Origin: Candidatus Adlerbacteria bacterium
Lineage (GTDB): Bacteria > Patescibacteriota > Minisyncoccia > Phycocordibacterales > SBAW01
DNA: 64,000 bases
NCBI GenBank assembly: GCA_029288895.1
Contig: JARIGK010000001.1
Location: 134,682 to 198,681 of the forward strand
Reading direction: 5' to 3'
The notes below the pieces were generated by a model. It did not search any database. It was not told where the DNA came from and saw only the letters and a program-made list of their open reading frames with translations. Shown here piece after piece: positions 5,538-38,439 of this stretch (its first letter is position 1; each line of letters starts with the position of its first letter). The position numbers were made by a program, and so were the translations under genes.

Positions 5538-6797
5538 ATGGCAAAAACTAAGAAGGCGACCAAAAAGAAGGTGGCCAAGGCAGCGAAACGTCCCAAAGGG
5601 AACGTTGCCAAGGCGAAGAAATTCCGCGACGTTGCAGCAAAACGCCGCGCTAAACTTGTGCCCAAAAAAGCCCCTGCCAAAAAGGTAAAGGCCGCAGCTG
5701 CACCGAAGGTTAACCCTGCAGCTGCCAAAAAACAGAACGATCAAAACAAAAAAGCAGAACAGTTGATGGCGTCGGGCCGCCAGCGCGGCTTCGTTACGTA
5801 TGACGAAATTTTGAAGGCTTTCCCTAACATCGAAACCGATGTCGATTTCTTGGAAGAACTCTACGATAAATTCTCGACCGCACACATCGACGTGCTCGAA
5901 GGCGGCGGCATGCTCGAAATCGAAAGCGAGCCGCTCGAAAAAGGCTACTCTCGTAGCGATTCCAACTACGACTCTATCCAGATGTACCTGCGCGAAATTG
6001 GCCGCTACCCGCTGCTTAACGCGCAGCAGGAGCGCGACTACGCAAAGCGCATCGTCGAGGGCGACAACGAGGCGCGTAACTTGCTTGCACGCGCAAACCT
6101 CCGCCTCGTCGTTTCTATCGCAAAGAAGTATGTAGGCCGCTCACCAGACCTCACCCTCTTGGACCTCATACAAGAAGGTAACTTGGGCCTCTTTAAGGCC
6201 GTCGATAAATTCGACTACACCAAGGGCTACAAATTCTCGACCTATGCCACCTGGTGGATCCGCCAGGCTATTACGCGTGCCTTGGCCGACCAGAGCCGCA
6301 CCATCCGCATTCCGGTCCACATGGTGGAAACTATCGCGAAATACAAGCAGGTTTCGCGCCGCCTCTCACAAGACTTGGGCCGCGACCCGCTTGCAGAAGA
6401 AATCGCACTTGAAATGGGTGTCGATGTCGACAAAATCTACCAAATAGAAAAGATCGACCAGGACACTGTCTCCTTGGAAAGCCCAGTTGGCTCAGACGAT
6501 GATGACGGTAAGTCAGTACTTGGCGACTTTATCAAAGACGACAAAATCTTGTCACCTGACCAGGAAGTCTCGCGCCGCATCTTGGGCGACCAGCTGCACG
6601 AAATCCTCGACGAGCTTTCTCCAAAAGAACGCGAAATCCTCAAACTCCGCCATGGCTTGGAAGATGGCATTTACCACACGCTCGAAGAGGTGGGCAAGAA
6701 GTTTGGCGTCACACGCGAACGTATCCGCCAAATCGAAGCAAAAGCCCTCGAGCGTATCCGCACGCACGACAAAGCAAAACGCCTCCGCAGCTACTAA
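5538..6797 (+). CDS. rpoD: RNA polymerase sigma-70 factor RpoD with a lysine-rich N-terminal extension
   Basis: Regions 1.2-4 are conserved ([43 protein letters not shown]). Residues 1-80 are histone-H1-like Lys/Ala-rich repeats. Confidence 0.9.
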
Positions 6798-18418: not shown

Positions 18419-18438
18419 CGCTCGGACTTTTCTTTTTT
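18404..18438. terminator. Bidirectional intrinsic terminator
   Basis: AGTCCGAGCG TGTAA CGCTCGGACT followed by TTTCTTTTTT. Confidence 0.65.
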
Positions 18439-18985
18439 AAAACTTCAGTGGGATTTGGAGAGTTTTTTCGCGAGATGGGTCGCCCGAAGGGTTGTCGTTG
18501 TGGAGGACGAGGGTGCCCATAGAGCCTTTAGGCTGGGCAGGGAAAGTGACAATTGCTTTGAACGGGACGAAGTCGTCTGTCATCCACTCGCCCTGTGCTG
18601 TGACATGTCCTTGGGCAATAACATTGCCTTGTGCATTGCGGAGCTCGTACGGTGCCGACGCTTCAAAGTACCATGCGCCGCGTGCCTGGCCGGTGATAGT
18701 AAGAGGTGAGGCAACGGTGCTGCCAATAAGCGGTGCGGTGACTTCGATAATGTTATCTATTTCTGCCACCGAGCCGGCGTGATTCGAGCCACTGCTGTTA
18801 GCCTCTACAGAACCCTCTGACGTCGTTTGGGACGACGCATCCGGGTTCTGCGCCGGCGTCACATCGTGCTGTTGGTTCTGCGCAGGCTCGGTATGACGTC
18901 CTGGCAAGGTAAATACACCGATAAATCCAGCTACAAGAACTATAAACAGCACAACCGCCAAAATAAGCCCATTTCTATTGTTCAT
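18437..18985 (-). CDS. Gmad2 immunoglobulin-like domain protein, membrane-anchored
   Basis: N-terminal TM segment and low-complexity linker. C-terminal domain carries WYFEASAPYELRNAQGNVIAQG...EWMTDDFVPF...GTLVLHNDNPSG, the typical Gmad2 pattern. Confidence 0.55.
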   Translation of the reverse strand: MNNRNGLILAVVLFIVLVAGFIGVFTLPGRHTEPAQNQQHDVTPAQNPDASSQTTSEGSVEANSSGSNHAGSVAEIDNIIEVTAPLIGSTVASPLTITGQARGAWYFEASAPYELRNAQGNVIAQGHVTAQGEWMTDDFVPFKAIVTFPAQPKGSMGTLVLHNDNPSGDPSREKTLQIPLKF

Positions 18986-18994
18986 ACTATTGAG

Positions 18995-19657
18995 TTATGC
19001 CTCGTCCGATATGAATAATTCATGATCACGCGGGAAGAGCCACAGCGCGATATGGTAGATGCCGTACGTGATGAAGAACGCTGACATAACGTCGATGGAA
19101 TAGTGGATGTGGCCCAACAGCACGATTGTGGCAAAGAATACCGAGCAGGCGAGGAATATATAGCGCCACAACTTTTCGTGCCAAAAGGCCAAGGCGGCGA
19201 GGAATGGCAGGCCGGTGTGGCCGGAGAAGAAGAGGTCGCCGCCAAAGAACGCACGGTTAACGGACGCGCCAAAATCGTCGGCTATGTGCGGCGCAAACGG
19301 CCCCAAATGTGTCAGTGATGTAAACCCTGAACGAATGAGAAAGAAAAGCCCTGCTGTTTTGAACATAAATGCAATACGCTTGGGGTGCGAAAATGCTAAG
19401 CCAACGCTCACAACAGCAAGAGCAATGGTGCCCCAAATAAACAAGTTGTCGACTGGAAGTGCGGGCGTATTAGAGAGAATTATGTCGGGTACCGCATTGC
19501 CTGCACGTTCTGTCGCAAATTGGATAGCCAATTCGTTGATGTAGTAACACAGCGCGAAGAAGATAAGCGAAAACACCGCTGAGGTAACAAACTCACGCTT
19601 GGAGACGTGCTCTTTATAGTGCTGTAGAAACTTGCTACGCATTATTGTTCTTTCCAT
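18995..19657 (-). CDS. PAP2-superfamily membrane protein (sphingomyelin-synthase / head-group transferase-like)
   Basis: Six TM helices; SGHT and HYSID motifs resemble PAP2 C2/C3 motifs. Overlaps the upstream GT4 gene. Confidence 0.45.
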   Translation of the reverse strand: MERTIMRSKFLQHYKEHVSKREFVTSAVFSLIFFALCYYINELAIQFATERAGNAVPDIILSNTPALPVDNLFIWGTIALAVVSVGLAFSHPKRIAFMFKTAGLFFLIRSGFTSLTHLGPFAPHIADDFGASVNRAFFGGDLFFSGHTGLPFLAALAFWHEKLWRYIFLACSVFFATIVLLGHIHYSIDVMSAFFITYGIYHIALWLFPRDHELFISDEA

Positions 19658-27254: not shown

Positions 27255-28244
27255 TCACAGGATGGGTTCGTGGCCGTGTTTTTTGAGGAAGTAGCCTTCA
27301 AGAGAGAAGCGGTCGTAGCCGTAGCAGATGAAGGAAAGCGGGATGCCGATCAAGATAAGATGCGGCCAGACAACTTCGCCAAAATAGACAAGCGACAGCG
27401 AAAGCCAAAACAAGAGGAAGATCGAGGTCCAGCGGATTTCAATGCCAAAGATAAAGAAGAGGCCGATGAGGATTTCGATAAGTGCGGCGCCCAAGACAAG
27501 GAAGTGCGGTTCAAACCCTAGGTAGTGGGCAATGGGGTACGGGTGCCCCGCAAGCGGCAACGACGCCACCTGCAGCGCCAAATCGTTATGCAAAATTTTT
27601 GCATAGTACGAGGCATAGATAAGCGCCGTGCCAAAACATACGCGCGCCACAAGGAAGCCGTACGGTGCCCATTTTTTGCGGAACAAAAATGCCAACGCCA
27701 GCGCCTCGCCCAGGTAGTTGGTATAGGTCAGCATGTACGCACCGTGTTTGAGGACTTCGGTAAAGAAGAGAACCAATAATGCGAGCGCTGCGAGCTCTGC
27801 ATAAAAATTAAAGATAAAGCAGACGCCAATAATGACGAGCAACACGCGCACGGCGTTGGTGAGCAGCCCAAACGTGCCTTCGATGGGGAGTTCTGGTCCA
27901 AAGAGCGAGCCGAAATAGGAAGCACCTAAAAGCGAGACGCCAACTGTGATGCGGCTTATGGTTGGTGCATAGGGCGGGAGTTTTTTGAACAAGCCTCCGA
28001 GATTTTCTTCTACGATGTGCCAGAAGGATGTAAAGAAAATGGTAGTGACAACAATAACCACGACAAGCGCCCAAAACATAAATTGGTGCATATTGCTCGT
28101 AGCAACCTGCAATTCAGAAAATGGCGCTGCAGTAAGGCCTGTTTGTATTTGCTCGGGTGAAAGTACGTACACCTCGTGTGCCGAGGCGAGCGCGGGGAAA
28201 AGGGCGCCGAGCGCCGCTGTACATATATAGATGAGCTTCCGCAT
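27255..28244 (-). CDS. Polytopic membrane protein, hypothetical (co-transcribed with the RR-HK pair)
   Basis: Signal peptide plus about nine TM helices. Lies 13 bp downstream of the hybrid HK stop. Confidence 0.45.
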   Translation of the reverse strand: MRKLIYICTAALGALFPALASAHEVYVLSPEQIQTGLTAAPFSELQVATSNMHQFMFWALVVVIVVTTIFFTSFWHIVEENLGGLFKKLPPYAPTISRITVGVSLLGASYFGSLFGPELPIEGTFGLLTNAVRVLLVIIGVCFIFNFYAELAALALLVLFFTEVLKHGAYMLTYTNYLGEALALAFLFRKKWAPYGFLVARVCFGTALIYASYYAKILHNDLALQVASLPLAGHPYPIAHYLGFEPHFLVLGAALIEILIGLFFIFGIEIRWTSIFLLFWLSLSLVYFGEVVWPHLILIGIPLSFICYGYDRFSLEGYFLKKHGHEPIL

Positions 28245-28256
28245 ACGCGGATTGTA

Positions 28257-30326
28257 TCACCCTTCGACCGAGGCGGCGGCTGTGGAGGAGAGTGCTTTTT
28301 TGAATGCCTTCTCTAATTCTTTGAGGCCCACGGGTTTGGTGAGATGATAGTGGAAACCTGCTTCGTGCGCTTTTTCTTTATCTTCTGTTTGGCCGTAGCC
28401 GGTAAGAGCGATAAGCGCTGCGTTTGTTGCGTTGTCTTGTTTCAAGCGGCGCACTACTTCGTAGCCGTCGATGTCGGGCAAGCCAATGTCGAGCACAAGG
28501 ATGTCATGGTCGGCCATACGTGCCGCTTCGAGCGCGGCCAACCCCGAGTAGGCCACGTGTACTTCATGACCGCGCAACTCAAGCAGCCTCTTCAGTGCAT
28601 GCGCTGCTGCCTCGTTGTCGTCAACAACTAAGATGCTGCGTTTATTGCGCACTGCACGCAAGGTACGATTTCCTGTGCCCGTGAGTATAGGTTTTTTTGC
28701 GGGCTTCTCGACGCGACCGCGGATAAGCGGCAGGCGCACGGTAAATTCCGACCCTTTTCCTTCGCCCTCGCTTTTCACTTCAATCGTGCCGCCGTGCATC
28801 TCGACCAGCTGGCGGGTGAGCGGTAGGCCGACGCCCAAGCCCTCTGTCGGTAATTTGCCGCGTTGCACCTGGAAGAAGGGTTCGAAGATGCGCTTTTGCA
28901 TCGTGCGCGAAATACCAATACCGTTATCGCGGAGCGTAAGCACAGCCATGTTTTTATCGTCGCGAAGCGAAAGTTCGATCGTGCCGCCAGGGTTTGTATA
29001 CTTCGCTGCATTGTTTAACAGATTGACGAGTATTTGTTCGACGCGGATAGGGTCAGCTTCCATATAGAGCGGCTCTTCTGGTTTGTGTACATGCAAACGG
29101 TGGCCGCGGCTTTGGAGAAGCGGTTTGGTCGACTCAACAGAGCGGTCGACGATATCTTCGACAAAGACCACTTCTTTGCGCAGCGCCAACTTATTGCGCG
29201 AGATGCGCGATATGTCGAGTACGTCATCGAGCATGCCGCGCATCGCGTTGACGTGCTGGCCGATGGTATTAACGAGTAAGGCCGACTCGCTGTGCTCGTG
29301 GCTTTCCAAGCGCAGGAGCTCTGCAGATGAGAGAATGGCTGCCAAAGGGTTCCGTAGTTCGTGCGCCAGCATCGCAAGGAAATTTTTCTTTGCTTCGTCT
29401 TCGGAGCTAATTTTACTGAGCGTTGTCTCAAGTTCTGTCACGTGGCGTGCGAGTTCTTGTTGTGCATGTTTGCGCTCTTCGACGATTGCCGTAAAGGTCA
29501 AAAATACCGTGCCCATCGTTGCGCTAAAGATCGCAAGCTGGAAGAGCGAGCCATTGGCAAAGGGGCCGTGGCCAAGCAATGTACCGCACAGCGCAACAAG
29601 CGCGGCAAGTGCAATAGAGAGACTCATGCCGCGCGGGCCCGTGCGCAGCGCCACCCACGTCAGCGGGATAAACACGTAGTAGGTAAAGTATGAGCTTTGC
29701 GGCAGCCAAAAAATAAACAGCGACGTGGCAAAGACGAGCAGGGTAAGCAGCGTAAGTTCGATGTATTGGCCGGCCGTACGCTCAAATCGCGGGCGAGAGA
29801 ACCACTTCAACAAGAGCGGTGCCAAAATAAGGATGCCCAATGCGTCGCCCGCCCACCACGCACCCCACATAGAGGGCAGCTCGGTGATGCGTCGTGCGCC
29901 GCTGGCCCACAGGCTTGCGATGCCAATGCTTGCACTCAAGAGCGGTGCAATAAACGCGGTTGCAATAATGCCGATGTTGTCACGCAGCCGAAGTAAAGAG
30001 GGTTGGAAGCCCACGTAGTAGTTTAAAAAATACGCGCCAGCGAGTGCCTCAAGTGCGTTACCTGCGCCTATCATCAGCGCGGCGAATATCGTTGCGCCGT
30101 CAGACAGGTTGACGAGTGCGGCGCCAATAAAGACTGCAGGCCAGAGCCGGTACCCCCACAGGAGAAGTGCTGCAAGTGCCACGGCGCTTGCCGGCCACAC
30201 AAACGTCGCGAAGGTGCCGACGGGTTCAATGCTTAATCCGAGACGCCCCGCCAGGAAGTAGACAAGTGTGAGAAGAATGTAGGGTTCGTATCGAAAGAAG
30301 AGGGTGATAAGGGCTCTTCTATTCAT
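28257..30326 (-). CDS. Hybrid sensor histidine kinase/response regulator (membrane sensor - HisKA - HATPase_c - REC)
   Basis: About 300 aa of multi-TM sensor domain (MASE1-like). H-box LAHELRNPL, the N/G1/G2 ATP-lid boxes, and a C-terminal receiver (LVVDDNEAAAH...DIGLPDIDG). Confidence 0.85.
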   Translation of the reverse strand: MNRRALITLFFRYEPYILLTLVYFLAGRLGLSIEPVGTFATFVWPASAVALAALLLWGYRLWPAVFIGAALVNLSDGATIFAALMIGAGNALEALAGAYFLNYYVGFQPSLLRLRDNIGIIATAFIAPLLSASIGIASLWASGARRITELPSMWGAWWAGDALGILILAPLLLKWFSRPRFERTAGQYIELTLLTLLVFATSLFIFWLPQSSYFTYYVFIPLTWVALRTGPRGMSLSIALAALVALCGTLLGHGPFANGSLFQLAIFSATMGTVFLTFTAIVEERKHAQQELARHVTELETTLSKISSEDEAKKNFLAMLAHELRNPLAAILSSAELLRLESHEHSESALLVNTIGQHVNAMRGMLDDVLDISRISRNKLALRKEVVFVEDIVDRSVESTKPLLQSRGHRLHVHKPEEPLYMEADPIRVEQILVNLLNNAAKYTNPGGTIELSLRDDKNMAVLTLRDNGIGISRTMQKRIFEPFFQVQRGKLPTEGLGVGLPLTRQLVEMHGGTIEVKSEGEGKGSEFTVRLPLIRGRVEKPAKKPILTGTGNRTLRAVRNKRSILVVDDNEAAAHALKRLLELRGHEVHVAYSGLAALEAARMADHDILVLDIGLPDIDGYEVVRRLKQDNATNAALIALTGYGQTEDKEKAHEAGFHYHLTKPVGLKELEKAFKKALSSTAAASVEG

Positions 30327-30332
30327 GCGCTG

Positions 30333-31007
30333 TTATGCGACAAATCGGTATCCGACGCCGCGCACTGTTTCAAAGCGGGGCGACATTTCTGTGCGTTCGA
30401 GTTTTTTGCGCAAGTTTTTCATGTGGACGTCGAGCACGTTGCTCCACGTCATAGAGTTAAAGTCCCACACATGGCTCGAGAGTTCTTCGCGGGTAAATAC
30501 TTCGCCTGGGCGGCGCAAGAAACATTCAAGTAGTGCGTATTCTTTCAGCGTAAGAGAAATTTCTTCACCATCGACATAGACTTTGTGCGTTGCAGTGTCG
30601 ATGGTAATGTCGCCGACCGTATGCACGACGGTGGGCATGGTTTGCGGGCGGCGGGAGACTGATGCGATGCGGGCAATAAGTTCTTCGTGTGAAAAGGGTT
30701 TGACGACGTAGTCATCGGCACCAGCGTTCAGGAGCTCCACTTTGGTAGTGGTGTCGGACGAGCCAGTCAAAATAATGATAGGGGTCTTGATCTCCGCTTC
30801 GCGGATTTTTTTGGTCAACGCCAGGCCGCCCATGCCAGGGAGCCCCAAGTCCATAATCATCACGCCGTAGTCGGTGTGGTAGAGCTGGGCGCGGGTAAAA
30901 GCTTTGTCGCCGTCATCGACCCAGTCCACTGCAAAACCCTTTAATTCTAATATCTTGGTAAGGTTAGCCCCGAGCTGCTGCTCGTCTTCGACAAGTAGTA
31001 ATCTCAT
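30333..31007 (-). CDS. OmpR-family response regulator (REC + winged-helix)
   Basis: MRLLLVEDEQQL...DLGLPGMGG receiver, and a C-terminal trans_reg_C (ETVRGVGYRF). Confidence 0.9.
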   Translation of the reverse strand: MRLLLVEDEQQLGANLTKILELKGFAVDWVDDGDKAFTRAQLYHTDYGVMIMDLGLPGMGGLALTKKIREAEIKTPIIILTGSSDTTTKVELLNAGADDYVVKPFSHEELIARIASVSRRPQTMPTVVHTVGDITIDTATHKVYVDGEEISLTLKEYALLECFLRRPGEVFTREELSSHVWDFNSMTWSNVLDVHMKNLRKKLERTEMSPRFETVRGVGYRFVA

Positions 31008-31016
31008 ATATACAGC

Positions 31017-31163
31017 CTACTCTATAGAGGTCTCCATGAACATATCATGAAGAAAGTATTTTTCGGTAGCCTGTAAGGCTTCTTCGCGGTTTTTGCACTC
31101 ACGGCAAAAGCGGGCGAATACCTCGTCCGCTTCACGCTCAAATCGTGCCAGATATGGTTCCAT
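31017..31163 (-). CDS. Small CxxC protein (48 aa), hypothetical
   Basis: MEPYLARFEREADEVFARFCRECKNREEALQATEKYFLHDMFMETSIE. Its ATG overlaps the 3' end of the upstream 64-aa gene and it ends 10 bp before the RR start. Confidence 0.3.
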   Translation of the reverse strand: MEPYLARFEREADEVFARFCRECKNREEALQATEKYFLHDMFMETSIE

Positions 31164-31332
31164 ACAAGTTGTTTGGCACTACCTTGTACATGCGCATGAT
31201 GCGCTCTGCCATGCGCGGGTGGGTGCGCTTGACGTGGTTCCACATCTTGATCTTATTCATAAGTGGCTTGGCTTCGGAGCCCAGCTCCTTGTACCCGCAC
31301 TCGCTGCAAATAAGTGTGACGTTCATAGACAC
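31138..31332 (-). CDS. Small CxxC protein (64 aa), hypothetical
   Basis: MSMNVTLICSECGYKELGSEAKPLMNKIKMWNHVKRTHPRMAERIM...; same orientation as the downstream RR-HK operon. Confidence 0.35.
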   Translation of the reverse strand: MSMNVTLICSECGYKELGSEAKPLMNKIKMWNHVKRTHPRMAERIMRMYKVVPNNLYGTISGTI

Positions 31333-31357
31333 ACAGTATAGAAGGGGGCGGGTGATA

Positions 31358-31564
31358 TTAAAGTGAAGACCTAACGTCGTCGACGCGTTGCTTCAAAAGC
31401 TGCTCCATGTCGGTAATAGCTTTGGTGATTTCTTTTGCAGTGTCATGCGCTTCGCCGCTTTTGCCTTCGAGTAAGAGCTCCAATAATTGCGCTTGGCTGT
31501 AGAGCACCGACAGCGCATTGCGCAGGTCGTGGTTGAGCTTTGAAATCTTTTCTGGCAATTCCAT
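31358..31564 (-). CDS. Stand-alone DHp/HisKA-like mini-protein (69 aa) with an H-box
   Basis: MELPEKISKLNHDLRNALSVLYSQAQLLELLLEG...; NHDLRNAL matches the HisKA H-box. TATACT lies about 12 nt upstream of the ATG. The upstream part of the track ORF looks non-coding. Confidence 0.35.
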   Translation of the reverse strand: MELPEKISKLNHDLRNALSVLYSQAQLLELLLEGKSGEAHDTAKEITKAITDMEQLLKQRVDDVRSSL

Positions 31565-31625
31565 CGTGTGTGCAGTATAGCAAAACGAAAGACGGCGACC
31601 AGTGTAGTACTGGCCGCCGTTGTTT

Positions 31626-31961
31626 TCACAGCAGCATGAGCTGCCGAACTTTTTTGTATTCCTCCAAAGGTCTGAGGTTGCTGCGTTGCGCATCGTATTG
31701 GACCCAGTGCCGCTGTTCGGGCGTGGCTTGCATGACCCACGCTGCAATCTCACACATTTGATCGTATTGTTTTTTCGGTATCCAGTCGCGGCCAGCTTTT
31801 GCCACCACTGGTAATGCATGAGTCTTGCGGGCGAAGGTTCTAAAGCTCTTCACCAGTACGAAGTAGTGTTCATGTCCTCCGAAGAGGAATGAGCACGTCG
31901 TGTCCGTTGGGGGATTGGTCTTCCAGCAGAGATCAGCTGCTGTGATGTTTGCCAAGGGCAT
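31626..31961 (-). CDS. Hypothetical protein
   Basis: 112 aa from the internal ATG (MPLANITAADLCW...). Confidence 0.3.
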   Translation of the reverse strand: MPLANITAADLCWKTNPPTDTTCSFLFGGHEHYFVLVKSFRTFARKTHALPVVAKAGRDWIPKKQYDQMCEIAAWVMQATPEQRHWVQYDAQRSNLRPLEEYKKVRQLMLL

Positions 31962-32039
31962 GCGTACGCTCCATTTTTGGTTAGAGAATACTTGAACTCT
32001 AGTAATTATTATCCTAAAGTTTGAATGAAATGTCAATGA

Positions 32040-32435
32040 TTGAATGAAAAACCCATGCAGGACAAGGGTTTTCCACAGATACAAAATTGTACATATCCAA
32101 CCTCATCTGGTATACCCAATATAGACGCACACAAAAATGGAAAGGGTAGCGTAATGGTTCCATCAACTGCCTCTAAAGAGAATACTGAGCCACGGGCCAA
32201 TCGTCTCAGTATTGCGGACGCTAATCGTCCGCCGCGCAAACATGGCAGTCGATGTTGTCGCAAAGGTTGCAAAGGCACAATAGGCATTTACGTGCCGCAG
32301 TCCATTTTCGTTTGGACACGGCAATTTTGCTCTCGTGAATGTCGCGATATTCACGACAGTAAAATAGCGCGCCCTTTGTTCCTTCCCGCGTCGACAGCTA
32401 TGTTCCTCCTTCTCTCATCGTGCGTCTCGTCTTAG
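32040..32435 (+). CDS. Hypothetical Cys-rich protein
   Basis: Contains CCRKGCKGT...CSRECRD (possible zinc finger). Start uncertain (alternative ATG at 32154). A terminator follows. Confidence 0.3.
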   Translation: MNEKPMQDKGFPQIQNCTYPTSSGIPNIDAHKNGKGSVMVPSTASKENTEPRANRLSIADANRPPRKHGSRCCRKGCKGTIGIYVPQSIFVWTRQFCSRECRDIHDSKIARPLFLPASTAMFLLLSSCVSS

Positions 32436-32458
32436 GACGGGGCGCTTTTTTTATGTAA
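32430..32458 (+). terminator. Intrinsic terminator (with G-U wobbles)
   Basis: CGTCTCGTC TTAG GACGGGGCG followed by CTTTTTTT. Confidence 0.45.
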
Positions 32459-32465
32459 AGAAAAA

Positions 32466-32492
32466 GGCCGCGCTACATGCGCGGCCCAGAAC
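32466..32492 (-). terminator. Intrinsic terminator overlapping the stop codon of 32473..33189
   Basis: GGCCGCGC ATGTA GCGCGGCC with a T-run (TTTTTCTTTAC) on the minus strand. Confidence 0.6.
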
Positions 32493-33189
32493 TCCGTAGT
32501 TGAAACTCATCTTCTGGGAGAGGAAATATATCCTTCCAAAAAGGGAGTGGGTTATGCCCTGCAGGGTCACGTTTCGATTCAGGCTCCCATTCGCCGAAGA
32601 CTTCAACAGCGTCATCGTTAATGTAGAGCCTTTCATTCCATCGTGCCGGCCGTGCTTCCCGGTTCAAGATAAAACGAGTCGTCATCGTCGCGCGCCACAT
32701 GCCCAAATAGACGCTAGACTCATGGCGGTTGCGTGGGTCGGCGAAATCTCGAATTTCAGGCGTGCTGATTTGCACCAGCTCACCTCGGGCTACTTTTACC
32801 CGGCCTTCGCCCCACATGCCGCGGATGGCAGTCGTCTCGGCTGTTTCGCCGTAGATGCCGGTCTCGCTTGTGGTGCGAATGACCGCGTCTTCTCCCTCTC
32901 GTGTAGTTGGAATGATTCTGCCGGCAACGATGCGATAGTGTTCGATGAGCTCCATTCCGGCAACGCGCAGCAACACTTCGGATTTTTTCGAACAGCACAC
33001 GCAATTGCCGTTATCGAGACGGGCGAACTCAATCTCCCGTTTTTGATTAATGGCCTTTGCCAAGTTCGCCAATTTGCGCGGACTACTTCGCTCAAACTCC
33101 TCGAGGTCAAAAGGCTTCCCGTCGAATGTTGTGCATCCAACCAGAAAGACTCGCAGATCTTTAATGGAATCGAATGTATAGAACTTCAC
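32473..33189 (-). CDS. Hypothetical protein (downstream of the second hybrid kinase)
   Basis: 238 aa, soluble, with CVCC and several conserved-looking Arg/Trp residues. Confidence 0.4.
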   Translation of the reverse strand: MKFYTFDSIKDLRVFLVGCTTFDGKPFDLEEFERSSPRKLANLAKAINQKREIEFARLDNGNCVCCSKKSEVLLRVAGMELIEHYRIVAGRIIPTTREGEDAVIRTTSETGIYGETAETTAIRGMWGEGRVKVARGELVQISTPEIRDFADPRNRHESSVYLGMWRATMTTRFILNREARPARWNERLYINDDAVEVFGEWEPESKRDPAGHNPLPFWKDIFPLPEDEFQLRSSGPRM

Positions 33190-33291: not shown

Positions 33292-35352
33292 TTATCCTTG
33301 CACACGGCCCAGCGCCGTTTGAAGATCGCTGAGGCTAATAGGCTTAACGAGGTATTGGTCGAACCATTCGCGCGCATCCATGCGTCGCGAATCGCCCAGC
33401 CCATAGCCCGTCAGTGCGATAAGAGTGCCGCGATAGTTCTGGCCTCGCAGCATGCGCGCCACGTCGTAGCCGTCCTGGTCGGGGAGGCCGATATCCAAGA
33501 AGATGAGGTCGGGCGAAATGCTGCGTGCTTTGGCGAGACCCTGCGCACCATCGTAGGCGTACTGCACGCGTGCACCGTGGAGTTCGAGCAGGCGCCCAAT
33601 GCCGGCCGCCGCGGCATCATTGTCGTCGATAATAAGGACAAGCGGTTGTTTTGATTTGGGTTGGGACCCTGGCGTGCGGATATCCGTGGCGCGCGCCTCG
33701 CGTTTTGGAAGCATCGTGTTGCCCGAGCGCATCAGCGGTATAGTCACTACAAAGCGGCTGCCGAGCCCGGCGCCATCGCTGTATGCCTCGATGGTGCCGC
33801 CGTGGAGTTCGACGAAGTTGCGTACGAGTGTAAGCCCAATGCCGAGACCTTTTTTATTGCGCGCATCTTGCTCGACCTGGTGGAAGGGGAGGAAGATGGT
33901 CTCAAGTTCGTTCGGGCGAATACCAATGCCGCGGTCGGACACTTCGATGCTTGCATTGTGGCCCTCTTCGCGCATCGAAAGCGTAATTGTTGTACCCGAT
34001 GGCGAGTATTTCGACGCGTTCGTCAGCAAGTTGGAAAACACTTGCTCCAAACGCACTGCGTCGCCAAGCACATGGAGTTGCTGTTTTGGCATATTCAACA
34101 CCAAACGCTGATGCAATTCTTTGCGGTGATGTTCGGTCGAAAGCACAGCGCGTTTCAGTACGACATCGAGCGATACCTGTTCGCGCTTCAAATCGACTTT
34201 GCCTTCCGAAATGCGGGAGATGTCGAGGAGGTCGTCGAGCAGGCGGCGGATAGTGTCCATCCGGTTTTCCATCATGGTAAGCAATTCGGTATCTTCTGCG
34301 TCGCGGCCGCCTTTTAATTTCATCAAATCGATGGATGAAATAACAGGCGCCAGCGGGTTGCGCAATTCGTGCGACAAAATGGCAATAAAATCATTTTTTG
34401 CTTTCGACTCTGAACTTTCGCGCGCCACAGCGTTGCGAAGTGTTGCCAACTGCGAGTGCATGATGTTGGTGTTGACGCGGCGATCTTCTTCAAGCGAGGT
34501 GATGATAAAAAAGAGCAGCGTGAGCATGATCAGCAACAGTTCTGTCTGGAATAGGTAGTCGACAACTAGGGGGGCTGGCGAATACAGTGCAACGCTCGTA
34601 ATGGCAAAGCATGAGGTGAGTAGCAGTGCGAGCGTAATAAATCGCGGCCGCATTTTAAGTGCGATGTAGAAGAGGGGTGCCATCAAAAAATATACCGTCG
34701 GAATGCCGCCAAGCGTCCCCATTTGGCGGACAAACAGCAAGTAGTCGAGCCCAAGCAGCGCCACGAAGACAAGTACGAGCTCGACCATTTCGCCAGCGTT
34801 GCGCGAAAAGCGCGGCTTGGCCAACCAGCGCAGCAAGAACGGCGTCATGATAAGGAAGCAGAAGAGTGTCGCGACATAGGAATGCTCCCACGTAAGCCCT
34901 AAATCGGAGAGGCCGCGATATGCGCGCACCAAAAGTCCGAGCGTTGGCGAAATAAGAGAGATGCACACTGCTGTTGCCATAAAGAAGAACGTGTCGCGAT
35001 ACCGTCGGAAGAGCGGGTCGATGCGTGCCTCAAGCAAGAGCCATGCACCCGCCAACCCTTGCAACACTTCAAATATCGGCAAGAAAATAATTGAAAGGAG
35101 AGAGCCGCCTGTCGCGATGTTTGCGACAAGCGCCGAAAGGTAGACGACGGGCCATAGGCGCGTACCGGCGAAGTAGAGTGCGGCCAGTGCGATGCCCGAT
35201 GCCGGGTTAAAGCGGGCCATGGGTGGAAGCACGACGCGAGCAAGCGCAAAGACAGCAACATAGAACACAAACAGGGCTGCTGCCGCGCGCCATTCGCGGA
35301 TACTATAGACTCCCGCTAATGCCCGGAGGCGTTTATTCATTGCTTCTACCAT
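33292..35352 (-). CDS. Hybrid sensor histidine kinase/response regulator, paralog of 28257..30326
   Basis: Same architecture as the first hybrid HK: multi-TM sensor, H-box LSHELRNPL, HATPase_c, and a C-terminal REC (LVLIIDDNDAAA...DIGLPDQDG). Confidence 0.85.
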   Translation of the reverse strand: MVEAMNKRLRALAGVYSIREWRAAAALFVFYVAVFALARVVLPPMARFNPASGIALAALYFAGTRLWPVVYLSALVANIATGGSLLSIIFLPIFEVLQGLAGAWLLLEARIDPLFRRYRDTFFFMATAVCISLISPTLGLLVRAYRGLSDLGLTWEHSYVATLFCFLIMTPFLLRWLAKPRFSRNAGEMVELVLVFVALLGLDYLLFVRQMGTLGGIPTVYFLMAPLFYIALKMRPRFITLALLLTSCFAITSVALYSPAPLVVDYLFQTELLLIMLTLLFFIITSLEEDRRVNTNIMHSQLATLRNAVARESSESKAKNDFIAILSHELRNPLAPVISSIDLMKLKGGRDAEDTELLTMMENRMDTIRRLLDDLLDISRISEGKVDLKREQVSLDVVLKRAVLSTEHHRKELHQRLVLNMPKQQLHVLGDAVRLEQVFSNLLTNASKYSPSGTTITLSMREEGHNASIEVSDRGIGIRPNELETIFLPFHQVEQDARNKKGLGIGLTLVRNFVELHGGTIEAYSDGAGLGSRFVVTIPLMRSGNTMLPKREARATDIRTPGSQPKSKQPLVLIIDDNDAAAAGIGRLLELHGARVQYAYDGAQGLAKARSISPDLIFLDIGLPDQDGYDVARMLRGQNYRGTLIALTGYGLGDSRRMDAREWFDQYLVKPISLSDLQTALGRVQG

Positions 35353-35431: not shown

Positions 35432-35971
35432 TTATGCGGATGTTCGTTTGAGGAGATAGCCCGCGCTCCCAAGAACCGCTACCCCAGAAAGGATGAGCGA
35501 AATGATAGTGGGGAGTGGGTCACCGCCCTCGCCCGTGTTTGGGACCCCAGGAATGGCTGTGGTCGATGTGCCCAATACTACGCCGCCCGAGCCCGAGGAG
35601 CCGCCTGTGGTGCTTGGCGTATTGGTGATGATGCCACCACCACCGCCCCCGCCACCGCCGCCAGACGAGCTACTGCCGCCGCCTGAACTTGGTGAGCTAA
35701 CGACGCTGCCGCCAAGCGAGCCTCCAGGTGAGGATGTTACCGTGCCGCCAAGCGAGCCGCCCGATGACGTTGCGACGCTACCGCTAAGGCTGGAACCCGT
35801 CGTGCTTGCGCTTGGGGTGCTCGTTGTTGTTGTCGATGTCGTCGTCGTTGACGTGGACCCTCCCGCACTCAAGGTGCCGGTGATCTCGGAGGCGCTTGCG
35901 ACGCTCGCCATACTTCCTGCGATGAGCAGTGCGGAGAGAATTCGTGCTGTGCTCTTAGTCATGAGATGCAT
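35432..35971 (-). CDS. Secreted Ser/Thr/Gly-rich protein with a C-terminal sortase-type sorting signal (VPNTG + TM + KRTSA)
   Basis: Signal peptide. Low-complexity T/S/G tracts including G12. C-terminus is AIPGVPNTGEGGDPLPTIISLILSGVAVLGSAGYLLKRTSA. Confidence 0.5.
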   Translation of the reverse strand: MHLMTKSTARILSALLIAGSMASVASASEITGTLSAGGSTSTTTTSTTTTSTPSASTTGSSLSGSVATSSGGSLGGTVTSSPGGSLGGSVVSSPSSGGGSSSSGGGGGGGGGGIITNTPSTTGGSSGSGGVVLGTSTTAIPGVPNTGEGGDPLPTIISLILSGVAVLGSAGYLLKRTSA

Positions 35972-35995
35972 TGCGTTTACTTGCTAATACGATTG

Positions 35996-37105
35996 TTAGA
36001 ACGGAGTTGTGGTCGACATTGCGCCGAAGGTTGTCGTGTAGTTGCCAGTTGGCGTACCAGACGGTACTGCTGCCTGGATGTAGACATCGATCTGGCGTCC
36101 CGGCGTTGTCGACGAGGTGTCACCGACGAGCATCATGTTGCCGCTGTAGTCGTTATTTGCCTCAAGCATCGAGGACGCGGTGGTCGATGCGTTCGATGAC
36201 TGTGGAGACCAGATGCGGATGTGATTTGCTGTCGCAAAGGTTGTCGACGAATTTGCCGTGTTGATGAAGTCGCCGAACTTCATAGCGAAGTTGCTTTCGG
36301 TGTCCGGAACAACGAGGTGGAGTATCCACTCCCACCCATGCTCAAACGTTCCATCTGCTGTGGCGCTCGTCTGCACGCTGTCGACACCTGTCACTGCAAG
36401 TGGAGTAGTTGATGTTGATGTCGTTGTTGTGCTCGTGCTCGAAGATACTGGTTGCACGTAGTAGGAGTTTGATGCCATGAGGCCACTCGTGCGGCCAGTT
36501 GCCGTGATCGCTGCCGGGCCCACTGCAAGTGACGGCACTGTCATGCTCTGTGTAAAGTTGCCGCTTGCGTCAGCAGAAACGGTCGTTGTTGCGCCGCCGA
36601 ACATAATGTCGACTTGCTCGGACGAATTGAAGTTTGTACCGAGCGCGTTGAACATGGAACCTGGTTCGCCGCTGTAGGAGCTCAGCGCCAAGAACGCGGT
36701 TGATGTTGCAGCCGGCGTGTAGCTGAAGGTCAGCATGTTGGATGCCACGTTGCCCGTCGATGATGCGGTCGACGACGAAACATCAGCACCGACCATAACC
36801 GTCACTGTGCCCGACGCCGTTGGCATCACGTTGAAGGTAAACGTCGTGCCGCTGCCCGACACTGTGCCAACGGTGGCATTAGTTGCCGTGATGTTCGCAC
36901 TGGTGAGGCCGTTTACCGCTTGCGAGAACGTTGCAGTGACGGGGATAGTCGTCGCTGACGTACTCGAGGAGACGGTCGAAGAAAGAACTACCGTTGGGCC
37001 GCCCGAGGCTGCCGACGAGAGGGATGCCAAACCTCCAAGTACTGCAACCGCCGCTATCATGGCGACTGCCATGCTTGAAAGTATCCCGATAGATTTTGCT
37101 TTCAT
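35996..37105 (-). CDS. Secreted S/T-rich surface protein (Ig-like repeats), hypothetical
   Basis: Signal peptide (MKAKSIGILSSMAVAMIAAVAVLGG); 369 aa rich in S/T/A/N. No C-terminal sorting signal. Confidence 0.45.
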   Translation of the reverse strand: MKAKSIGILSSMAVAMIAAVAVLGGLASLSSAASGGPTVVLSSTVSSSTSATTIPVTATFSQAVNGLTSANITATNATVGTVSGSGTTFTFNVMPTASGTVTVMVGADVSSSTASSTGNVASNMLTFSYTPAATSTAFLALSSYSGEPGSMFNALGTNFNSSEQVDIMFGGATTTVSADASGNFTQSMTVPSLAVGPAAITATGRTSGLMASNSYYVQPVSSSTSTTTTSTSTTPLAVTGVDSVQTSATADGTFEHGWEWILHLVVPDTESNFAMKFGDFINTANSSTTFATANHIRIWSPQSSNASTTASSMLEANNDYSGNMMLVGDTSSTTPGRQIDVYIQAAVPSGTPTGNYTTTFGAMSTTTPF

Positions 37106-38376: not shown

Positions 38377-38439
38377 TTGTAGATGAGTTCATACTCAATT
38401 CATATTCACATCGATGAAGAGGTCAGCTAGATGAAGAGC

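Follow-up and report, generated by a model that had tools for sequence, protein, structure and literature searches.

What does a phosphotransfer domain do when it is encoded on its own in a cluster of hybrid kinases, and is such a reading frame a gene at all? This question is raised by a signaling locus of Candidatus Adlerbacteria on contig JARIGK010000001.1. It was analyzed within a stretch of 64,000 nucleotides (nt; positions 134,682 to 198,681 of the contig), referred to as the window, whose own numbering is used for all its coordinates. The element in question, termed mini-DHp (31358..31564, minus strand), is an open reading frame (ORF) for a bare dimerization and histidine phosphotransfer (DHp) hairpin. 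An initial annotation had given it 69 amino acids (aa); the ORF is present as described, and the protein comprises 68 aa, the 69th codon being the stop. As judged by its sequence conservation, mini-DHp is a genuine conserved gene and a member of a distinct DHp-only family of ~70 aa. Its product most likely relays (or removes) phosphate between the neighboring hybrid kinases and response regulator, as conserved residues and gene order suggest.

The mini-DHp protein reads MELPEKISKLNHDLRNALSV... and contains the H-box KLNHDLRNAL. The candidate phospho-acceptor is His12 within the motif H12-D-L-R-N16. Herein, the E/DxxT/N motif following the histidine is intact, and its T/N position is occupied by Asn16. 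The protein matches the Pfam family HisKA (PF00512) over profile positions 7–56 of 66 with an E-value of 1.6e-5 and 25.3 bits, the gathering cut-off being 26.9. All 16 close family members match HisKA as well (best E 8.5e-9), and PF00512 is listed for an identical protein (P0001) in the precomputed annotation of the collection. The homology extends over both helices, along which mini-DHp also aligns with the DHp domain of KdpD from the PDB. The AlphaFold2 (AF2) monomer model consists of two helices, 3–31 and 38–67, with a pLDDT of 91.2. Its best Foldseek matches are kinase DHp domains, and they include 7n0e, in which the GacS DHp forms a hetero-complex with RetS. With the HisKA homology over both helices and the confident helical-hairpin model, the initial description as a free-standing DHp with an intact H-box is borne out.

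The protein ends after helix 2, and no match to HATPase_c was found with Pfam. Hpt (PF01627) is not matched at E-values up to 1, and the HxxKG motif is missing. A Spo0E-like phosphatase is likewise not among the Pfam matches at E-values up to 1, and the sequence contains no SQELD. SPOB_a is matched weakly by three of the 16 family members (E 0.0046). Of the HisKA, Hpt and Spo0B-like folds that had been envisaged at the outset, the profile searches return HisKA, for the window protein slightly below the gathering cut-off. Because it has no catalytic domain, mini-DHp cannot autophosphorylate, and its histidine could be loaded only by a phosphorylated receiver or, in trans, by the catalytic domain of another kinase. 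The name "histidine kinase", given to family members by NCBI and JGI, is functionally wrong, since these proteins lack HATPase_c and end after helix 2. A 153-aa reading of the ORF from ATG 31819 was considered and rejected; it runs through the terminator described below, and all homologs use the same Met.

Ratios of nonsynonymous to synonymous substitution (dN/dS) were calculated by the Nei-Gojobori method between the window and L027, a Logan assembly (L027/L028) with the same gene order. For mini-DHp (75% identity), dN/dS is 0.16, and the substitutions are distributed over the three codon positions as 14, 7, and 26. The two small ORFs that follow it show the same third-position bias: the first, zn62, encodes a 62-aa protein (94% identity) with a dN/dS of 0.05–0.085, and the second, c48, encodes a 48-aa protein (75% identity) with a dN/dS of 0.12 and substitutions of 8, 7, and 17 in the part not overlapping zn62. 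Alternative frames give values near or above 1 (0.87–3.9). A profile built from three mini-DHp sequences recovered 16 free-standing proteins of 67–103 aa, and an exhaustive search of 1.84 billion representatives with a profile of these 16 gave 252 matches at E-values up to 1e-3. The ~53–55 best clusters (50% identity; E <1e-8) are nearly all 51–97 aa long and match end to end, and full-length kinases appear only from ~E 1e-8 downward. In the DNA of the collected loci, family members reach 55–110 bits with the mini-DHp profile versus ≤22 bits for ordinary kinase DHp domains. The pattern H-[D]-[LVIM]-[R]-N is found in 67 of 68 short members, among which H and N occur in 67 each, D in 65, and R in 62. 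At H+5, where HisKA typically has Pro, the family has Ser, Ala, Thr, or Gly and in no case Pro; the family signature is HDLRN[SA]LS.IYS.AQLLE. Where the sources give an organism for a family member, it is Candidatus Paceibacterota, and the closest kinase homolog in the genome collection (L001, 49% identity) comes from Candidatus Saccharibacteria; the family is therefore placed in the candidate phyla radiation. In L001, the regulator is convergent, and neither mini-DHp nor the 62-aa gene is found within 22 kb.

These data bear on the possibility, raised by the initial annotation, that a third kinase decayed here and left the three ORFs behind, as a pseudogene instead of functional proteins. In its favor, the HisKA score of the window protein lies slightly under the Pfam cut-off, and the adjoining spacer region is variable among relatives. 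However, all three ORFs exhibit the low dN/dS values given above, the ~70-aa family is stable in length over ~55 clusters and separated from kinase DHp domains by its profile scores, and promoter and terminator are conserved. A full-length kinase at the position of mini-DHp was seen in none of the relatives examined (L027, L045, L046/47, L052, and a JGI contig), and neither the 62-aa nor the 48-aa ORF has a significant kinase-related match in Pfam or NCBIfam. Because of this purifying selection, the distinct family, and the lack of a full-length kinase in relatives, the remnant reading is rejected as barely credible.

In the window, mini-DHp belongs to a minus-strand cluster that is bounded by two hybrid kinases of the domain order MASE1-HisKA-HATPase_c-REC (Pfam; without an Hpt domain), one upstream (33292..35352) and one downstream (28257..30326). 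Between mini-DHp and the downstream kinase lie zn62, c48, and an OmpR-family response regulator of 224 aa (30333..31007; Pfam Response_reg and Trans_reg_C), and the kinase starts 6 nt from the regulator. The regulator is 95% identical in L027 with a dN/dS of 0.03, and L027, L045, L046, and the JGI contig likewise have a hybrid kinase at the upstream position. The arrangement as a whole is found in seven loci, namely the window, L027/28, L029 (partial), L045, L046/47, the JGI contig, and L052. This recurrence in relatives, together with the third-position-biased substitution in all three small ORFs, makes it more than a chance arrangement.

Ten independent mini-DHp contexts were examined. In nine of them, mini-DHp is clustered with or directly follows a partner that ends in a receiver, either within a hybrid kinase or as a single-domain receiver accompanying a kinase. 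A MASE1 hybrid kinase precedes the gene by 10–14 nt in L048/49 and L055. The order in L050/51 is a non-hybrid PAS kinase, a single-domain receiver of 124 aa, and mini-DHp. L054 exhibits the most extended series, in which a MEDS kinase, a 128-aa receiver, mini-DHp, a 184-aa ORF, an OmpR-type regulator, and another kinase follow each other; herein, mini-DHp overlaps the receiver gene by 4 nt. Hence, a separate receiver is interposed where the upstream kinase has none, and mini-DHp stands next to the kinase or in the same cluster where the kinase is a hybrid. An arrangement of this kind would be expected if mini-DHp supplied the second His of a His-Asp-His-Asp relay. In addition, an N-terminal receiver is fused to mini-DHp in P0036 (193 aa, on a Logan contig of 1888 nt), which by sequence is a Rosetta-stone link between receiver domains and the mini-DHp family. 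The FATGUY-type motif (PMC9981736) was also considered as a possible mark of receivers that partner with a DHp. It reads LTGYG in both hybrid kinases of the window and is given no weight because the single-domain receivers of L050 and P0036 lack it.

From this context, a relay can be proposed. Mini-DHp would form a homodimeric four-helix bundle that presents His12, as its homology implies. By gene context, His12 would accept a phosphoryl group from the C-terminal receivers of both MASE1 hybrid kinases, and mini-DHp would pass it to the adjacent OmpR-type regulator. The result would be a His-Asp-His-Asp relay that feeds two sensors into one output. The reverse chemistry would drain the regulator, so that mini-DHp may act in both directions, and, once phosphorylated, the regulator probably turns on transcription from its own leaderless promoter via the TTCAT-N6-TTCAT box described below. 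What we infer here is that mini-DHp is dimeric, which partners it has, and which way the phosphate flows. That mini-DHp is a minimal His-phosphotransferase without a catalytic domain, leading from two MASE1 hybrid kinases to the OmpR-type regulator, is regarded as an evenly balanced proposition. It is supported by the lack of an Hpt domain in both hybrid kinases of the window and by a crude HxxKG...G scan limited to the window and seven syntenic loci, which found no Hpt-like protein. Hybrid kinases pass phosphate on via an HPt protein or via a DHp protein of the pseudo-kinase type, of which ChpT and Spo0B are examples (PMC9981736). For the isolated EnvZ DHp, catalytic competence has been reported (Zhu et al. 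2000, cited in PMC3510030).

Several points weigh against a relay. The homolog in L053 has no signaling neighbors, and loci with the regulator and a MASE1 kinase occur in which no mini-DHp is found in the available DNA (L030/31, and L038 with only 836 nt upstream). The downstream kinase, 6 nt from the regulator, resembles the kinase of a cognate pair, so that direct transfer from its DHp to the regulator may need no shuttle. Moreover, sequence cannot separate a relay from a phosphatase, because the conserved residues also serve the phosphatase activity of HisKA proteins. The latter activity requires the T/N of the E/DxxT/N motif (PMC3510030), which is intact in mini-DHp, its Asn16 position being invariant in the family. 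This leads to the main alternative, namely that mini-DHp is a dedicated phosphatase acting on the phosphorylated regulator, the kinase receivers, or single-domain receivers, as a reset or phosphate-sink module. Its association with receiver domains would fit this role equally, and its own promoter sets it apart from the regulator-kinase unit. The isolated DHp of EnvZ forms a dimer, can receive phosphate in trans, and reportedly acts as a phosphatase on OmpR~P. The histidine is not strictly required for HisKA phosphatase activity; however, it is invariant in all 67 motif-bearing homologs, and both the kinase-receiver-mini-DHp-regulator order of L054 and the P0036 fusion read more naturally as a relay. 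Because of this invariance and gene order, the relay is favored and a dedicated phosphatase appears unlikely while still carrying appreciable weight. The two roles are not mutually exclusive.

A phosphotransfer decoy and a substitute shuttle were both envisaged initially. As a decoy or inhibitor, mini-DHp would damp signaling without phosphoryl chemistry, either by forming heterodimers with the DHp of the hybrid kinases, similar to RetS and GacS, or by sequestering the regulator. Its fold is that of a kinase DHp, with the GacS–RetS complex 7n0e among the top matches, and the sequence of helix 1 resembles that of the neighboring kinases (NALSVLYSQAQLLEL versus NPLAAILSSAELLRL). Yet the family is distant from the kinases' own DHp domains (~26% identity, besides the gap in profile score), and its linkage to receivers persists with quite different kinase types (PAS, MEDS). 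The invariance of His, Asp, Arg, and Asn across ~67 diverged members would be left unexplained, as a purely structural decoy would not need such conservation of H, N, and D. Therefore, the decoy is considered improbable. The shuttle fits best, given the synteny with receiver partners, the receiver-DHp fusion, and the invariant His and Asn.

Functionally, the closest known systems to a relay via mini-DHp are the analogous phosphotransferases Spo0B, from the sporulation phosphorelay of Bacillus, and ChpT, from the CckA-ChpT-CtrA pathway of Caulobacter. Like these, mini-DHp is by sequence a DHp hairpin with a phosphorylatable His and without kinase activity, and gene context places it between a receiver domain and the terminal regulator. 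The order kinase-receiver-mini-DHp in L050 and L054 mirrors KinA, Spo0F, and Spo0B. However, Spo0B and ChpT keep a C-terminal CA-like α/β domain, whereas the 68-aa mini-DHp has nothing after helix 2. Because it lacks this domain, mini-DHp is a functional analog of Spo0B and ChpT at most and not one of them; its family is of the HisKA type, with only three weak SPOB_a matches among 16 members. In size and chemistry, the closest analog is the EnvZ "domain A" fragment (~67 residues), which has the same size and fold and an H-box of the type H-D-L-R-T/N. Whereas domain A was cut from a full kinase in the laboratory, mini-DHp is a natural gene product, and the HisKA-typical Pro at H+5 is replaced throughout the mini-DHp family. 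HPt proteins (LuxU, YPD1, the C terminus of ArcB; PF01627) share the proposed role, namely a His shuttle from several hybrid kinases to one regulator, but are monomeric four-helix bundles with HxxKG and unrelated to mini-DHp in sequence. As in the DHp heterodimerization of RetS and GacS or the binding of the anti-kinase Sda, the helical hairpin could dock on a kinase DHp; RetS and Sda act by binding alone, whereas the mini-DHp family keeps an invariant catalytic H-box.

Archaeal censuses (Galperin et al. 2018, PMC5847659) list proteins described as "HisKA, no HATPase" or "possible incomplete histidine kinase", for which phospho-acceptor, phosphotransfer, or phosphatase roles were proposed. They resemble mini-DHp in the conserved His, the lack of a catalytic domain, and the mis-annotation as kinases. 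The archaeal proteins carry N-terminal PAS/GAF sensors and some also a receiver, whereas mini-DHp is a bare DHp of the candidate phyla radiation. Literature searches for stand-alone, DHp-only, or HisKA-only proteins yielded no account of a bare ~70-aa DHp family. The broader proposal, that ~70-aa DHp-only proteins are a natural minimal phosphotransferase class replacing HPt and Spo0B/ChpT in phosphorelays of the ultra-small bacteria of the candidate phyla radiation, is put forward tentatively and falls just short of an even balance. Phosphorelays are thought to use HPt proteins or pseudo-kinases with a degenerate catalytic domain. If the proposal holds, DHp-only dimers would connect OmpR-type regulators with single-domain receivers or with the receivers of hybrid kinases, and the DHp hairpin alone would be the minimal unit capable of His-Asp phosphotransfer. 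This would explain the wiring of Hpt-less hybrid kinases in genome-reduced bacteria. It would also correct the systematic mis-annotation of family members as "histidine kinase". Comprising a 68-aa protein, two kinases, and one regulator, the system is compact enough to be reconstituted directly in vitro, and the conserved TTCAT box offers a handle on the regulon.

In the same clade, another DHp module without a catalytic domain was observed in relatives that lack mini-DHp. It is a soluble protein of ~260 aa with HisKA and REC, encoded after the regulator (L032 5654-6448, L033 6920-7696, and L040 2498-3292). It contains neither a catalytic nor a sensor domain, and a kinase of the PAS + HisKA_2 type is located nearby.

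The initial annotation had assigned mini-DHp its own TATACT -10 element, and this element is present at 31574..31579 (minus strand), 9 nt before the ATG. It is preceded by an intrinsic-terminator-like hairpin with a T tract (31582..31620, minus strand), consisting of a 12-pair stem with eight GC pairs and the tail CTTTCGTTTT. The hairpin would close the upstream gene and set it apart from the mini-DHp unit. Since a terminator-like hairpin is followed by TATACT, mini-DHp should start its own transcription unit, and since the element stands only 9 nt before the ATG, the mRNA should be leaderless or near-leaderless. A hairpin or T-run comparable to the window terminator precedes mini-DHp in L045, L052, and L027, and TATACT is found 6–10 nt before its ATG in L029, L045, and L052 as well. 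A second TATACT (31335..31340, minus strand) precedes the zn62 ATG by 8 nt, and TATACT, GATACT, or CATAAT occurs 5–9 nt before this ATG in most homologous loci. Many genes of the window lack a Shine-Dalgarno motif and carry a TATACT, TAGAAT, or TATAAT-like hexamer 6–9 nt before the ATG. Among 56 long ORFs of the window, 16 have TAnnnT 4–11 nt before the ATG versus 10 with a Shine-Dalgarno-like motif, which suggests that leaderless mRNAs are widespread in the source organism. No Rfam family matches the small-ORF region.

The protein zn62 (31138..31326, minus strand) had been described as a 64-aa protein. The ORF 31138-31332 does give 64 aa from a GTG at 31332, but the likelier product has 62 aa, because all homologs start at the position of ATG 31326 (MNV/MKV...). 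A metagenome scan yielded 15 further loci with this protein. Among 20 homologs (60–67 aa), C7, E9, C10, W29, N30, H31, H36, and P51 are invariant, and L22, K25, I26, and M28 are also kept. The resulting pattern C-x2-C-x20-H-x4-H, present in all 20, is a candidate zinc site of the Cys2His2 type. In the AF2 model (two-sequence alignment, pLDDT 72.5), a β-hairpin with the CxxC is followed by a helix with the histidines. Compared with a C2H2 zinc finger, the spacing is 20 instead of ~12, and Pfam matches to C2H2 or zinc-ribbon families are insignificant (E 0.03 or worse). No match was found in Pfam, NCBIfam, PDB sequences, or Foldseek.

The neighborhood of the 62-aa gene was counted in 17 related loci, the window not included. 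It lies directly upstream of the regulator in 10, and in two (L043 and L044) it directly follows a hybrid kinase; in the remaining five, the available DNA shows no adjacent two-component gene (L030, L035, L036, L037, L039, and L041, which include short or cut contigs). Homologs without adjacent two-component genes (L035 5432-5635, L041 494-694, L037 4500-4688, and L039 1200-1388) neighbor a secreted Ig-like protein or an ORF that is PurH-like by eye only. Hence, the link between the 62-aa protein and the regulator is frequent but not obligatory. The protein is commoner in the clade than mini-DHp and, from its conservation pattern, is regarded as a separately conserved accessory of the regulator module.

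The ORF c48 (31017..31163, minus strand) lies in the +1 frame and overlaps zn62 by 26 nt. The initial account of two overlapping small genes with one CxxC each is therefore accurate; its further proposal, that they form a Cys4 set together, is not supported. The 62-aa protein has its own C7, C10, H31, H36 set, and the cysteines of c48 (Cys20, Cys23) occur only in the window and L027, the corresponding stretch reading FLREAG in L045 and FMEQGH in L052. An N-terminal core F..AD.VF..F....REEAL..TE and the 26-nt overlap are common to the versions of L045 (61 aa) and L052 (73 aa). In L046, the ORF is deleted (~6430-6445), leaving ATG-GAA-CAG-TAG ("MEQ-stop"), whereas the sister L045 keeps its 61-aa version; this deletion is direct evidence that c48 is dispensable. 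In L029, a degenerate copy of the ORF continues in frame into the regulator, and the more distant L031–L042 have no such ORF, with just 50–60 nt between the 62-aa gene and the regulator. In the window, the regulator follows directly, as had been noted, its ATG (31007) standing 9 nt past the stop of c48.

As the C-terminal conservation of c48 is that of a DNA motif read in various frames, it was considered whether the ORF is promoter DNA only. As the whole story, this is rejected by the third-position bias versus L027 and by the N-terminal core shared with L045 and L052, which indicate that c48 is translated in the L027/L045/L052 sub-lineage. It is probably a dispensable, lineage-restricted accessory small protein whose 3′ end overlies the regulator promoter. 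It was also considered whether zn62 and c48 are fused by a frameshift; no homolog of the 62-aa family has such an extension.

The regulator promoter contains the direct repeat TTCATGATATGTTCAT (TTCAT-N6-TTCAT; 31036..31051, minus strand, exact match) with an 11-bp period at the -35 position, and a TAGGCT -10-like hexamer (31014..31019, minus strand) 6 nt before the ATG, meaning a leaderless geometry. In an alignment of 13 loci upstream of the regulator ATG, the repeat cTTCATgnnAT(n)TTCATgg is followed 15 nt on by a TAGnnT hexamer, which is TAGTAT or TAGCAT in the relatives. The box, which in the window lies inside the last codons of c48, is found at a constant distance from the regulator ATG in 12 of the 13 loci in any local reading frame. 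Since the reading frame across the box changes from locus to locus, the conservation is that of DNA and not of protein. Its geometry is that of OmpR/PhoB-type activator sites, in which direct repeats of ~11-bp period replace the -35 element, so that the box is a candidate site of this type and most likely mediates autoregulation of the regulator. In L032, L033, L038, and L040, a conserved ATTCATGCCAAAATCAGA-like stretch is located ~30–45 nt upstream of the 62-aa gene. It contains one TTCAT half-site at the -35 position of the promoter of this gene, and the regulator may possibly control the 62-aa gene in these lineages.

TTCAT-N6-TTCAT-like boxes also occur elsewhere in the window, their total of seven versus 4.2 expected not being above chance. 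The box at 19011-19026 (minus strand) deviates at one position and precedes a Gmad2 Ig-like gene (18436-18985) by 25 nt, in the same orientation and at the same distance as at the regulator. The box at 38388-38403 (plus strand) is exact but inverted and located between a PAP2 gene and a CAP-family gene.

The spacer between mini-DHp and the upstream kinase (31626-33189, minus strand) varies in gene content among relatives within the otherwise syntenic cluster. In the window, it holds a ~111-aa ORF (31626..31961, minus strand) and orf238 (32473..33189, minus strand), both without a Pfam family; orf238 has only a weak match in L027 (E 0.003). On the 3′ side of the downstream kinase, a 329-aa membrane protein with a weak DoxX match is encoded (27255-28244, minus strand), which may belong to the operon, and an ORF of ~327 aa occupies the equivalent position in L045, L046, and the JGI contig. 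Upstream of the cluster, two Ser/Thr/Gly-rich low-complexity secreted proteins are encoded (35432-37105, minus strand). Where the window has this pair, L027 and L046 carry Big_12/Big_13 surface proteins and an adjoining sortase gene.

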